NCBI GenBank assembly: GCA_018673485.1
Contig: JABHCP010000015.1
Coordinates: 25,529-89,528, forward strand
Direction: 5' to 3'
From: Candidatus Uhrbacteria bacterium
GTDB lineage: Bacteria; Patescibacteriota; Patescibacteriia; UBA9934
DNA length: 64,000 nt
Made by a program: the position numbers and the translations under genes. The notes beneath the pieces were generated by a model. That model had not been told where the DNA came from and did not search any database. It saw nothing but the letters and a program-made list of their open reading frames with translations. Positions 7,667 through 36,076 of the stretch are shown in pieces; positions within the stretch are counted from its first letter, which is position 1; each line of letters starts with the position of its first letter.

Positions 7667-10331
7667 CGCTGTGCCAGTTACGCTTGCAAGCTCTACAATA
7701 AATTCAAATGTTCAATGGACGAACATGACTACTCTTTCCATTGATGCTAGTTCAACTATTAATGCAAATGAAAGAGGTTGTGTAAGTGCTGGGACTTATA
7801 ATGGTTATGGTCCAGATGGATCAAATGTTTGTACACTAAGCACAGCTGGATATGGTGCCGGTTTTAACGCTACTAGTAAAGGAGTCGAAGGTGCTGGTCA
7901 TGGAGGAACCGGTGGTGCCGGATCGACTACAAGCGGGGCTGGAGCTACTTATGGATCTAATACAGCACCTGTATTACTTGGATCTTCTGGAGGAAATGTA
8001 ACTGCAGCGGCATTGGGAGGTTCTGGAGGAGGACTTGTTAGGTTGGATGTTTCGGGAAGTTTCACACACAATGGATCTATTACGGCAGATGGTGGGGATG
8101 GTGGCGTGGTTGATACTGGTGATAAGGCTGCAGGTGGAGGATCTGGAGGATCTATTTATGTAACGGCTGGTTCAGTTATCGAAGGTGGTGGCGCAACAGG
8201 AACATTTTCTGCAGATGGTGGTGCTGGTGCTAATGACAATGTCACAGATGGAGGTGGAGGTGGAGGAGGACGTGTTCGTGTAGGATATGGAGCGGATGCA
8301 GACTCTCTCGTAGCTGGACTCTCGGCAGGTGGCGTGGCGGCTGGTGGTGCAGCTACAGGCACAGCAGTAGCAGGTTCAACGGGAACCCTTTCAACCGCTG
8401 ATATATACGGCCCATCAATCTCAACAGCCGTAACAAATGACGCAGACGCAGACGGTCAGATAGATACTATTGTCCTAACACTCTCAGAAGACGTAACAGG
8501 CGGCACAGTCGCCGGTGCTGACTTTACATTGTCAGATAGTTATACGGTGGCCTCAGCCTCGCGTACGGCAGATTCACAAATTACAATTGTTGTTACAGAA
8601 AAGAGCAACGATGGTGACACAGAAGTCGTTCCAACAGTAACCATCGCCGGCTCTATTGACGACACTTCAGCAAACTCAACAACGTCAGGCTCAAAAGCAT
8701 CAACAGACGGAGCTAAGCCTCGCATTAGTGCAATCAAGTACAGAGACCAAGATGCCGATGGAAAGATAGATGTGGTTACATTAAACTTTTCAGAATCCCT
8801 TGACGCAGCGTCAAGCATATCTCAAAATGATCTACTCGTTTATGCTGTAGGAGATTTCACAGGAGCGGCGTTTAATAGTGAAACAAATGATCTCTTCATG
8901 TCTCCAGACTGGACCATTCAGATTCCTTTGGCTACCGAAGCGACCGTGGTAGATACTAAGGATGATTCCGGCACCTTCGAGATTCGTCCACAAAAGTCTT
9001 TCTCAATCACAGACGGAACAAATACAAACACAGACACAGGTGAGCTTACACACATCTCTCCTGGAAGCTATGGAGACGAGGCCCAGCCTGTTATTACCTC
9101 GATAGCACCAGCTGACGCCGAGACAAGTGTTTCGGCCTCAGAAGATATCGTTGTAGTATTTTCAGAAGCAATGAATACAGGCTCAACTACCTATACAATT
9201 ACAGCTGACCCTGGCGGAGCATCTGAAGCATGGACAGTGAGTGATACAACTCTTACTATTTCTCATGACCAATTCCAGGGTTCCACTGATTACATTTTTG
9301 AAGTAACAGCAGCACCCGACGTCGCAGCGAATGCTCTTGCAGGTACAGTCTCTGGAGTAACCAACCCCGCAACATTCTCCATAGCGTCCGCTGGAGGAGT
9401 ATCTGTCTCTTCATCTGCCCCAGACCCATCCATTGGTTCAGGCTCAGAGGACAATCCAGTAGATTCAATCTCAGAGTCCTCAAGTGCATCTGGAACATGC
9501 GAAGAAGGTTTCAACCCTGGAGAGAACATCGCCCTTGCATGGGCTTCAAACTCAAGCGTGAATCTCGTCAACTTATACTATTCGACAGACGATGGAGATT
9601 CTTACACGCTCATTGAAGGTCCAATAACCAACACAGAAAACTACACTTGGACAATCCCAACAGACATCGTAGGCTCAACATTGCAGTTTAAGATAGAAGG
9701 AACGGACTTAGCTGAGATCACTGCCACCTTCGAGACCGAGAGTTGCGCCCTCAACGGTGCGGACGACGGCACAGAGGATGATACGATCGAAGACCCAACC
9801 TCAGAGGTCACAGAGCCAACCACAGGCGAGCAAGGCTATTCACCAGTGACAGGAGAAGTCGAGGACATCTCAGTGACAGAGGTAGGAGATTACATCCGAT
9901 CATCTTACTTCAGCACTGTCTACTATCTCGACACTGACACAGAAACAAACGAGATAGTTCGACGTCCTTTCATGGACGCACAGACATTCTTTACATACCA
10001 AGATAATTTCGACAACGTAAAGACGGTTACGGATGCAACACTTACAACAATAACTCTAGGATATCCAATGCTACCCAATCCAGGAGTTGTACTCATTAAG
10101 ATCCAATCTGACCCTAAGGTATATGCAATAGACTCAGACGGAACCACTATCCGCTGGATAGCCTCAGAAGAGGTCGCAAACACACTCTACGGCGATGATT
10201 GGAGCCAATACATCATAGACATCGAAGCAACGTTCTTCCCGAGGTTTACGCAAGGAGGTGATGTTGACGAAGCCGATGATATCGATCTTATGGATAGGGT
10301 GATGAAGAGGAGAAGCGAGCTTTCACAATAA
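7620..10331 (+). CDS. glycine-rich surface protein, continuation; carries a second copy of the Gly-rich module and a C-terminal ~110 aa domain shared with two other secreted proteins in the window
   Basis: overlaps previous ORF by 47 nt in another frame; module 7776-8282 ~90% nt identical to 6757-7262; C-terminus STVYY...KIQSDPKVYAI...FFPRF. Confidence 0.6.
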   Translation: MLQLQGESPDIWTMNDAVPVTLASSTINSNVQWTNMTTLSIDASSTINANERGCVSAGTYNGYGPDGSNVCTLSTAGYGAGFNATSKGVEGAGHGGTGGAGSTTSGAGATYGSNTAPVLLGSSGGNVTAAALGGSGGGLVRLDVSGSFTHNGSITADGGDGGVVDTGDKAAGGGSGGSIYVTAGSVIEGGGATGTFSADGGAGANDNVTDGGGGGGGRVRVGYGADADSLVAGLSAGGVAAGGAATGTAVAGSTGTLSTADIYGPSISTAVTNDADADGQIDTIVLTLSEDVTGGTVAGADFTLSDSYTVASASRTADSQITIVVTEKSNDGDTEVVPTVTIAGSIDDTSANSTTSGSKASTDGAKPRISAIKYRDQDADGKIDVVTLNFSESLDAASSISQNDLLVYAVGDFTGAAFNSETNDLFMSPDWTIQIPLATEATVVDTKDDSGTFEIRPQKSFSITDGTNTNTDTGELTHISPGSYGDEAQPVITSIAPADAETSVSASEDIVVVFSEAMNTGSTTYTITADPGGASEAWTVSDTTLTISHDQFQGSTDYIFEVTAAPDVAANALAGTVSGVTNPATFSIASAGGVSVSSSAPDPSIGSGSEDNPVDSISESSSASGTCEEGFNPGENIALAWASNSSVNLVNLYYSTDDGDSYTLIEGPITNTENYTWTIPTDIVGSTLQFKIEGTDLAEITATFETESCALNGADDGTEDDTIEDPTSEVTEPTTGEQGYSPVTGEVEDISVTEVGDYIRSSYFSTVYYLDTDTETNEIVRRPFMDAQTFFTYQDNFDNVKTVTDATLTTITLGYPMLPNPGVVLIKIQSDPKVYAIDSDGTTIRWIASEEVANTLYGDDWSQYIIDIEATFFPRFTQGGDVDEADDIDLMDRVMKRRSELSQ

Positions 10332-10372: not shown

Positions 10373-10378
10373 ATTGAA

Positions 10379-10537
10379 CTATTCTACTGTTGGAGTGTCC
10401 TCTCCTACAACAGGTACCTCTGGAGTCTCAGGTTCAGTTGTAGAATCAGTAGCTGGGTCCATTTCTTGCTTCTCATCACCACAGCAAGATCCGCTATCAT
10501 CGCAGCACTTGCCGAAAAGTTTGTTAAACCATGACAT
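10379..10537 (-). CDS. candidate small Cys-rich protein (52 aa), below the ORF-track size cutoff
   Basis: AGGAGG Shine-Dalgarno ~14 nt upstream of ATG at 10537; translation MSWFNKLFGKCCDDSGSCCGDEKQEMDPATDSTTEPETPEVPVVGEDTPTVE; ends at the bidirectional terminator. Confidence 0.3.
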   Translation of the reverse strand: MSWFNKLFGKCCDDSGSCCGDEKQEMDPATDSTTEPETPEVPVVGEDTPTVE

Positions 10538-10655
10538 ATATAAAAACGTAAAGAATAATGTTCCTCCTAACTTCAGCTTACCTTGGTGGTACTAAGGCGT
10601 CAAAGTAGTTATCCATAGGGTTGATTAAAACACATTTTTTGGCTAGTATAAGCCC

Positions 10656-11402: not shown

Positions 11403-11500
11403 AAAACAGCCCGTCACACATTCCATCCCGAACGCAGTGAGGGATCTTCTAGAAGATATCTCGTGCACTCGATATGGTGGGTGAAGAGGGCTGATTTTTT
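11403..11500 (+). ncRNA. structured element A: ~95 nt candidate small RNA / elaborate terminator, homologous to element B at 20633-20740
   Basis: closing helix CAGCCC/GGGCTG followed by T6; internal CCATCCCGAACG block; palindromic GGGATCTTCTAGAAGATATCTC; ATGGTGGG block; shared blocks with element B. Confidence 0.3.
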
Positions 11501-11534
11501 ATTCTGCGTACTGCGAACTGAGCACTGCGTACTA

Positions 11535-17416: not shown

Positions 17417-17516
17417 TGTCATCCCGGCCCCCGAGCCGGGATCTATCGTTTATCGAATTCGATAGTTGATAGATTCCTGCTTTCGACCCGTCTGACGGGT
17501 TTCGCAGGAATGACAA
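17404..17516 (+). ncRNA. structured intergenic element: three hairpins enclosed by TGTCAT/ATGACA
   Basis: CCCGGC-CCCCGA-GCCGGG; ATCTATC...TATCGAATTCGATA...GATAGAT; TCCTGC-TTTCGACCCGTCTGACGGGTTTC-GCAGGA; outer TGTCAT...ATGACA. Confidence 0.3.
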
Positions 17517-20568: not shown

Positions 20569-20632
20569 GGATTCCTCCAGGAGTAGGTTGTACGCAGATG
20601 AATTTAATCATCGACAATGTTTCTTGTCAATC

Positions 20633-20740
20633 ACAAAACCGCATCCATATCATCATCCTGAACGAGGCCGATAGGCCGATGGGGGATCTTTTGAGAAGAT
20701 TTCTCCCTGCGGTTGAATGGTAGGAGAATGCGGTTTTTGT
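20633..20740 (+). ncRNA. structured element B: homologue of element A, ends in a hairpin plus T-run
   Basis: closing helix AAAACCGCAT/ATGCGGTTTTTG; CCATATCATCATCCTGAACG block; GGGGGATCTTTTGAGAAGATTTCTCC; GAATGGTAGG; T-run at 20735-20744. Confidence 0.3.
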
Positions 20741-20745
20741 TTTCT

Positions 20746-20783
20746 GACTTCACATAAGGTCCGATCGGACCTTATGTGAAGTC
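20746..20783. repeat. 38 bp perfect palindrome GACTTCACATAAGGTCCGATCGGACCTTATGTGAAGTC
   Basis: read directly; lies between dcd stop and element B. Confidence 0.6.
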
Positions 20784-35983: not shown

Positions 35984-36076
35984 ATTTTTGTCATTCTGAG
36001 CGAACGGAGTGAGTCGAAGAATCTGTTTGAGAGATCCTTCGACTTGGCCTTCGGCCTCGCTCAGGATGACGAATTA

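Follow-up and report, generated by a model that had tools for sequence, protein, structure and literature searches.

The DNA analysed here is a stretch of 64,000 nt from a Candidatus Uhrbacteria bacterium (contig JABHCP010000015.1), hereafter the window. It contains two homologous structured elements, A at 11403-11500 and B at 20633-20745, whose common blocks occur in the same order, far above chance expectation. Pfam assignments place A between the convergent genes miaA and gatB, and B between two minus-strand genes, a dCTP-deaminase-like gene, 3' of which it sits, and an unassigned open reading frame (ORF) of 129 aa. An inspection of the letters without database searches (the sequence-only reading) had described both elements, A between the convergent miaA and gatB and B between two minus-strand genes, and we find them as described. 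It had interpreted them either as a family of small RNAs (sRNAs) and thus as functional RNA, or as an elaborate terminator module. The second interpretation holds, in that the outer helices are the terminators of relatives, but the first does not. A and B are probably ordinary intrinsic terminators, the loops of which are occupied by inverted pairs of an interspersed single-stranded DNA (ssDNA) hairpin repeat that resembles repetitive extragenic palindromes (REPs) and Rickettsia palindromic elements (RPEs).

Terminator shells and repeat pairs in the window

Each of the two elements is enclosed by an outer GC helix, which an A-run precedes and a T-run follows. In A, the 5' arm CAGCCC (11407-11412) follows an A-run (11403-11406), and the 3' arm GGGCTG (11488-11493) is followed by an A and then by TTTTTT (11495-11500), so that arm and tail together span 11488-11500. 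Both closing helices that had been claimed are thus present, although the T-run of A is not directly adjacent to its helix. On the minus strand of A, the same outer helix is followed by TTTT and, standing between the convergent miaA and gatB, it looks bidirectional. In B, the 5' arm AAAACCGCAT (20635-20644) adjoins the −35-like TTGACA of the downstream minus-strand gene (20630-20625), and the 3' arm ATGCGGTTTT (20728-20737) runs into a TGTTTT tail (arm and tail, 20728-20743). In minimum-free-energy folds of A and B, the outer helix is closed whichever strand is folded, and the folds are stable (z = −3.4 and −2.9). The helices of A and B had been taken to compensate one another; they are unrelated, and true compensation is found just between orthologues (A versus its counterpart in the relative L007, see below). 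A GC-rich stem followed by a T-run 3' of a gene is what an intrinsic terminator shows, but the loops of 75 nt (A) and 83 nt (B) replace the usual 3 to 8 nt or so, and simple terminator scans therefore miss both elements. A consensus terminator scan around miaA/gatB and around the dCTP-deaminase gene revealed no other terminator-like structure nearby.

The pairwise alignment of the two interiors gave the ordered blocks CATCCYGAACG, GGGATCTT(C/T)T..AGAAGAT(A/T)TCTC and ATGGTRGG. The shared blocks reported previously are therefore real except in detail, as the first base of CCATCC differs in B and the central near-palindrome carries a 1-nt indel between A and B. For the central block, written as a degenerate 23-nt pattern, 0.00 matches were expected in shuffles. 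These blocks are parts of a repeat unit, for which a covariance model (R1) was built and run over the window with filters off. A carries an intact GA-type unit on the plus strand at 11424-11449, ATCCC-GAACGCAGTGA-GGGAT-C (30.9 bits, E = 1.7e-5), which has TCC in place of the canonical GTC head and 2 mismatches to the family pattern. A short central palindrome, CTTCTAGAAG (11446-11455), joins it to a second, degenerate unit on the minus strand at 11452-11476, ATATC-GAGTGCACGA-GATAT (13.1 bits, E = 0.45); as read from the sequence, the stem ATATC/GATAT of this unit is intact and its apex is 1 nt short. In B, the plus-strand GA-type unit at 20655-20688 has an extended apex, ATCCT-GAACGA-(GGCC GATA GGCC)-GATGG-GGGAT-C, with ATC in the position of the GTC head, and the second, degenerate unit on the minus strand at 20698-20720, ATTC-AACCGCAGGGA-GAAAT, was read from the sequence and lies below the R1 threshold. 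B as a whole escaped the model because of the GGCC-GATA-GGCC extension in its unit apex. The same extended subtype is seen in the minus-strand unit of pair C and in the unit at the B site of the relative L008 (both described below).

Two copies had been counted by eye. The R1 search together with reading of the window revealed at least four loci of the repeat, the additional ones being the inverted pairs C and D. Pair C (35989-36071) is canonical, with TGTCAT...ATGACG ends and units scoring 29.9 bits on the plus and 19.4 bits on the minus strand. It takes up the prfA-prmC spacer of 93 nt (flanking genes by Pfam), shows two-storey GA apexes and has neither an outer helix nor a T-run. Pair D (17417-17515; 17.1 bits, E = 0.044) has TGTCAT...ATGACA ends, lies between genes for dihydrofolate reductase (DHFR) and dCMP deaminase (Pfam) and likewise lacks a terminator shell and a T-run. 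Just left of the D insert stands a further ATGACA string, which matches the right end of the element.

Two other small repeats border A and B. B is adjoined by the perfect palindrome of 38 bp that the sequence-only reading had noticed there (20746-20783; GACTTCACATAAGGTCCGA plus its reverse complement). The window contains a single copy of it and the orthologous spacer of L008 has none, so it is a separate small insertion, and it may act as terminator of the dCTP-deaminase gene. Between A and the stop codon of gatB, a direct repeat CTGCGTACT ... CTGCGTACT is found at 11503-11532, in a stretch that is absent from L007.

A hairpin unit of 25 nt

The repeat unit comprises about 25 nt of the form T-GTC-AT-xyz-GA-RC-GNA-GY-GA-z'y'x'-AT-C. 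Folded on one strand, it is compact, consisting of a 5-bp stem, a tandem G.A/A.G step, 2 bp and a GNA triloop. In its usual form the apex is a GCGNAGC 'mini-hairpin', of which A and B carry a variant with AC..GT closing pairs. This mini-hairpin, in which a GNA loop containing a sheared G.A pair is closed by two G-C pairs, is known to be unusually stable as DNA (PMC13037366), and the GA..GA steps of the unit are positioned in such a way that they could form tandem sheared G.A pairs in addition. Units are found alone or paired in inverted orientation. The canonical copy, TGTCATCCCGAACGaAGTGAGGGATCTTgcttAAGATtCCTCGCtgTGCTCGGAATGACA, forms an imperfect palindrome of 60 nt in which each arm is a small inverted repeat itself (ATCCC..GGGAT; ATTCC..GGAAT), and the most frequent spacer between the units of a pair is 8 nt. 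A and B are divergent members of the family, with CCAT...ATGG instead of GTCAT...ATGAC ends. Only the purine-rich strand forms the GA-type hairpin, so that in an inverted pair each strand has one good hairpin.

To follow the unit in viral contigs, the pattern GTCAT-NNN-GARC-NN-AGYGA-NNN-ATC was used, in which both stem triplets are free; it retrieved at least 120 loci. Among the unique viral matches listed, the free triplets were Watson-Crick complementary in 142 of 153 cases, for a chance level of 1/64, and comprised at least nine pair types. In the same set of listed matches, the R/Y pair under the apex was complementary in 145 of 150, the apex read C-(G/A)-N-A-G, and a T preceded GTC in 85%. 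An alignment of 67 unit sequences (A3) had 97.7% of its cells paired, with double changes in all four variable pairs; none of 500 shuffles reached the observed covariation, and slid controls were only 13 to 53% paired. In 100 inverted pairs, the partner arm was perfectly self-complementary in 92 and perfectly complementary to the other arm in 31. What is maintained are therefore the hairpins of the units and not a long hairpin formed by the pair, which we discard as the conserved structure. The covariation likewise belongs to the 25-nt unit and not to the fold of about 100 nt that had been proposed for A and B.

In several loci, an extra GC-rich hairpin (CCTACC..GGTAGG, CCTGCC..GGCAGG) occupies the same loop position of the 3' unit (L007, 1305-1345; L016, ~890-960; L013, ~154-240); additional small insertions seem to accumulate preferentially at the unit apex.

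Copies in relatives, other genomes and phages

Three syntenic relatives, L007, L008 and L009, were compared with the window. Their MiaA proteins are 82% (L007), 73% by BLASTP or 77% by alignment (L008), and 70% or 72% (L009) identical to that of the window. The MiaA homologues are labelled Patescibacteria, Uhrbacteria or Parcubacteria, and the exact MiaA is encoded on marine metagenome contigs. At the A site, L007 holds the element, its outer helix CAGTCC/GGACTG differing from CAGCCC/GGGCTG by one compensatory change, and a tandem-duplicated GC hairpin of 38 nt is inserted in the 3' half. In L008, the site is a plain terminator, CCAGCC-ttgc-GGCTG, with a 4-nt loop, which lies in a 38-nt gap, and in L009 the sequence is unrelated. 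The 5' arm of A is orthologous to the CCAGCC of the plain L008 terminator and to the CAGTCC of L007. At the B site of L008, the outer helix is identical, within an identical stretch of 23 nt that includes the 5' arm, and the −35-like TTGACA is kept; the interior consists of one unit in the opposite orientation. In all orthologues, folding recovered the outer helix. Since the outer helices are orthologous to a plain hairpin (A) and identical to the stem of L008 (B), we attribute them to resident terminators. The interiors, the content and orientation of which differ between relatives, would then be repeat insertions.

Turnover is seen at other sites as well. None of L007, L008 and L009 has an insert at the D site; their DHFR and deaminase genes abut or overlap. 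The D insert of about 120 nt is thus specific to the lineage of the window. Conversely, the miaA gene of L008 contains an inverted pair within its coding sequence (10168-10239, protein P0006; R1 47.1 and 25.7 bits). In protein and DNA alignments this is an in-frame insertion of about 25 residues, GVCHSERSEESIRVDPSASTTPQDDD, in a variable loop, which is absent from the other orthologues.

Two further stretches of the window deserve mention. The region upstream of miaA (10374-10655) contains in-frame stops and a low-complexity ORF, and the MiaA of the window, like those of its closest relatives, is a short form (248 aa). Between 18879 and 20178, about 1.3 kb lack a convincing ORF, the two strands carrying just short ORFs that overlap, with a GC content of 51% compared to 45% for the window. 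This segment gave no Rfam match at E ≤ 0.1 and shows hardly any conservation with L008; a decayed gene, foreign DNA and an uncharacterized RNA are all conceivable.

The distribution of the repeat was studied with an exact pattern for a narrow variant, ATCCYGAACG-N(2-32)-GGGATCTT-N(3-6)-AAGAT, over 185,579 species genomes. It gave 58 loci in many phyla, of which 21 came from a single metagenome-assembled genome (MAG) of Gammaproteobacteria and 4 from a rumen Clostridiales MAG. Single loci of this variant were found in Saccharibacteria, Verrucomicrobia, Binatia, Alphaproteobacteria (including the isolate Reyranella sp. CPCC 100927), Micavibrio and others. A few of the 58 are chance matches within genes (L027, L034, L036), and the phylum labels of L022 and L038 may stem from mis-binned contigs, as their flanks are common with the Gammaproteobacteria MAG. 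Unannotated matches to the unit lie on plasmids of Planktothrix and Calothrix, and weak ones in three phages of Enterobacteriaceae; none of 5,426 E. coli genomes contains the unit. A metagenome scan with an N{1,2} pattern, which excludes the CTTCTAGAAG of A, recovered solely the B locus of the same organism (L188). The loci retrieved and analysed amount to only about 1.5 Mb.

The 58 genome loci comprised 18 convergent, 13 and 13 tandem (one for either orientation) and 4 divergent gene contexts. Copies are mostly intergenic and enriched at the 3' ends of genes. For the viral loci in tandem contexts, the two orientations were represented by 32 and 29 of the matches listed, so no preference for a transcription strand is evident, single units included. 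Related phage contigs mostly keep the unit at the same intercistronic position, and some hold variants or unrelated spacers instead. When the ORFs adjacent to units were clustered, only phage structural and housekeeping families emerged.

In the Gammaproteobacteria contigs of Ga0077554 (LNFF01; L012-L067, for example L033 at 1290-1450, L062 at 930-1050 and L059 at 780-910), the pair is part of a larger composite repeat in the order partial arm, CCCCGCAGCTTGCTGCG, pair, CCCCGCAGCTTGCTGCGGGG, T-run. Extra half-units flank or precede full pairs in this genome, some 25 nt outside them, a spacing that suggests a nested or composite arrangement comparable to subterminal repeats.

Nature of the elements and alternative explanations

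Among known systems, the unit resembles the REPs and REP doublets (REPINs) that accompany REP-associated tyrosine transposases (RAYTs, Y1 transposases) in Enterobacteria, Pseudomonas and Stenotrophomonas. These are likewise hairpin units of 20 to 40 nt with a conserved single-stranded 5' head, found alone or in inverted pairs outside genes, with a bias towards gene 3' ends and without target-site duplication. The hairpin and the inverted pair are both found here (covariation, 100 inverted pairs). As to copy number, 4 loci were counted in the 64-kb window and, for a single narrow variant, 21 in one Gammaproteobacteria MAG. REPs are normally lineage-specific, whereas one sequence family here spans phyla and phage contigs and is absent from the E. 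coli genomes searched. The head is (T)GTC rather than GTAG/GTGG, with TCC and ATC in A and B, the stem, AT-YCY/RGR-AT, includes a tandem G.A step, and the ORFs adjoining copies yielded no RAYT gene, although no profile search was aimed at Y1 transposases. Several enterobacterial REPs do have the GCGnAGC apex (PMC2817692, Table 1). Because the head rule fails and no RAYT was found, we do not file the unit as a REP, but as an element that works like one.

A second resemblance concerns coding sequence. RPEs are selfish DNA of about 100 to 150 bp, not known outside Rickettsia, that is inserted in-frame in protein-coding genes. The present repeat is also palindromic, open in several frames and tolerated in-frame in a surface loop of MiaA (L008), but its unit measures 25 nt and its pair about 60 to 100 nt, it is mostly intergenic, and there is no sequence relationship. 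With miniature inverted-repeat transposable elements (MITEs; Correia/NEMIS, ERIC, Nezha) it shares the small size, the non-autonomous, inverted-repeat character, the intergenic location and the association with terminators, which such elements may carry or sit in. Its pairs have inverted ends, TGTCAT...ATGACA, but these 'terminal repeats' are covarying hairpins, half-elements are common, a target-site duplication is lacking and no parent insertion sequence is known from the adjacent ORFs searched. The outer GC stem and T-run of A and B, 3' of genes and orthologous to plain hairpins, are those of intrinsic terminators, except for the size of the loop. Finally, the usual apex, GA-GCGNAGC-GA, corresponds to the d(GCGNAGC) mini-hairpin of Hirao and colleagues (PMC13037366), which is a structural motif and not a genetic element; the AC..GT closing variant of A and B departs from it, and the motif is recognized here from sequence alone.

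Rfam helped to delimit the RNA-based explanations. At gathering level, the 64-kb window gave 0 matches, and it also lacks tRNA. The 300-nt regions around A and B, searched at E ≤ 10, contained no plausible family, and 20 loci with canonical copies gave nothing relevant. These searches rule out a known ribozyme, riboswitch or sRNA as well as 5S rRNA. A hammerhead-like CUGA..GA in B was rejected by eye, as the GAAA core is absent. Rfam 15 and the literature searched contain no description of the unit; one may exist elsewhere. Full-text matches to unit sequences, to their reverse complements and to typical peptides translated from them were confined to primers, and topic searches led to work on REPs with RAYTs and on mini-hairpins.

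If A and B were trans-acting sRNAs, that is, independent RNA genes of about 100 nt with loops that bind a protein or target mRNAs, their stable folds and the T-run after each of them would be accounted for, and B, free-standing on the plus strand, even has a promoter-like TTGTCA-18-TATCAT (20624-20653). Transcription from that site would, however, start inside B and lose the outer helix, and no promoter-like site was found near A. An sRNA gene would further be expected to keep a fixed orientation, its own promoter and terminator and to be conserved as a unit. The same blocks instead lie in dozens of unrelated contexts, in both orientations and without strand preference, within operons (C, D) and within coding sequence; it is the 25-nt unit that covaries and not the 100-nt fold; and sites are present in one close relative and variable or empty in another. 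Together with the lack of an Rfam match this makes an sRNA very improbable. The sequence-only reading had named the absence of further copies among the observations that would speak against an RNA. Such copies are numerous, but they mark a repeat and not an RNA gene. Its remark that CCGAAC and a GATGGT-like string recall loop C and loop E of 5S rRNA holds for the strings, both of which are present in A and B; yet no RF00001 match was obtained at either locus in 300-nt searches at E ≤ 10, CCGAAC represents the end of the unit stem plus the GA step and apex pair and recurs in hundreds of non-rRNA contexts, and the corresponding 3' string of canonical copies is ATGAC, the end of the repeat, rather than a loop E motif. 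Degenerate or permuted 5S-like genes are therefore hardly conceivable.

The strongest rival is a domesticated cis-acting RNA, in which GA hairpins at mRNA 3' ends or between cistrons block exonucleases, guide processing or aid bidirectional termination, a role for which the E. coli REPs, known as 3'-untranslated-region elements, provide a precedent. It would agree with A and B being the sole terminator-like structures after miaA/gatB and the dCTP-deaminase gene, with a core of A that is far better conserved with L007 than its surroundings, with the retention of the unit at the same intercistronic position in related phages, and with the 3'-end enrichment (18 convergent versus 4 divergent contexts). 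Single units are nevertheless free of orientation bias, although one strand alone gives the GA-type hairpin, relatives cope with an A-site loop of 4 nt and, at the D site, without any spacer, in-frame pairs occur in coding sequence, and C and D lack a T-run. These points tell against such a role as the raison d'être of the family, and on balance we regard it as unlikely. The lack of a transcription-strand bias would suit a signal at the level of host DNA, an extruded GA mini-hairpin recognized by a widespread protein of host or phage, such as a priming or single-strand initiation signal or the site of a nucleoid protein or recombinase, as proposed for GCGAAGC phage-origin hairpins. The strong conservation of loop and flanks (T at −1 in 85%, GA..GA invariant, among the matches listed) next to a stem that merely covaries, as well as the presence of the unit in phage contigs, points in the same direction, and mini-hairpins do occur at G4/ssiA priming sites and N4 promoters (PMC13037366). 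Against a placed signal, copy number and position vary between close relatives, the insertion in a coding sequence and the nested or tandem half-copies resemble parasitic spread, and no associated gene was found among the unit-adjacent ORFs, so that we consider such a signal improbable, more so than the cis-acting RNA.

We therefore retain terminators with repeat insertions as the preferred explanation for A and B. The repeat would be a non-autonomous element acting at the DNA level as a single-stranded hairpin, and mobility might proceed via an ssDNA hairpin intermediate, handled by an enzyme of the HUH/Y1 type or formed by template switching; movement or recognition as an ssDNA hairpin is suggested by a stem that covaries without transcription-strand bias. 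Terminators would tolerate the insert in that it folds on itself and the outer stem still closes, and termination is likely retained at A and B, since stems and T-runs are preserved and no other terminator-like structure lies nearby.

Several observations weigh against this explanation. No target-site duplication was detected, direct repeats of 2 to 8 nt at either boundary being no commoner than in shuffled flanks. Among 350 ORFs within 400 nt of units there was no transposase or mobilising gene, a result that does not include a profile search aimed at Y1 enzymes. The related phage contigs offered no clean empty site, orthologous spacers either keeping or replacing the unit, and the gene contexts rest on crude ORF calls. 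A and B themselves lack the canonical TGTC/GACA ends and could be relics that no longer move, or copies that have been domesticated. Between A and L007, the core differs at only about 9% of positions (alignment A5), compared to about 33% for the segment between helix and core, which could reflect purifying selection on a function or gene conversion. The nearest-neighbor energy of the unit is insignificant (−1.9 kcal/mol, z = 0.19), although the proposed pairing was recovered and the parameters do not cover sheared G.A pairs or the stability of the mini-hairpin. Finally, it is unusual among selfish REP-type repeats, as a rule lineage-specific, that one short sequence is conserved across phyla.

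In annotation, the appropriate label for A and B is that of terminators with repeat insertions and not of sRNA genes, and the same applies to many conserved intergenic hairpins in MAGs. Translated units give rise to spurious peptides (...VILSEAKNL..., ...CHSERSEES..., ...ILRFAQND...), which recur in many 'hypothetical proteins' of environmental genomes, so that the sequence has certainly been seen before, even if unnamed. Patescibacteria, Proteobacteria, Firmicutes, cyanobacterial plasmids and phage contigs have in common a short hairpin repeat whose stem covaries while its GA/GNA apex is fixed. This breadth, together with its turnover between close relatives of the candidate phyla radiation (CPR) and its in-frame seat in MiaA, is unusual for REP-type repeats. 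The repeat is also a tractable system in which to study the movement of such elements and their tolerance by terminator loops. More tentatively, the unit may define an undescribed family of ssDNA hairpins across phyla and phages, which may still be turning over in the tiny CPR genomes and occupy terminator loops, operon spacers and coding loops alike, without target duplications. If this were true, a broadly distributed HUH-type enzyme, phage-borne spread or template switching during replication could be what moves it, and the repeat would stand for a novel class of mobile elements or of hairpin signals and not for a REP of a single lineage.

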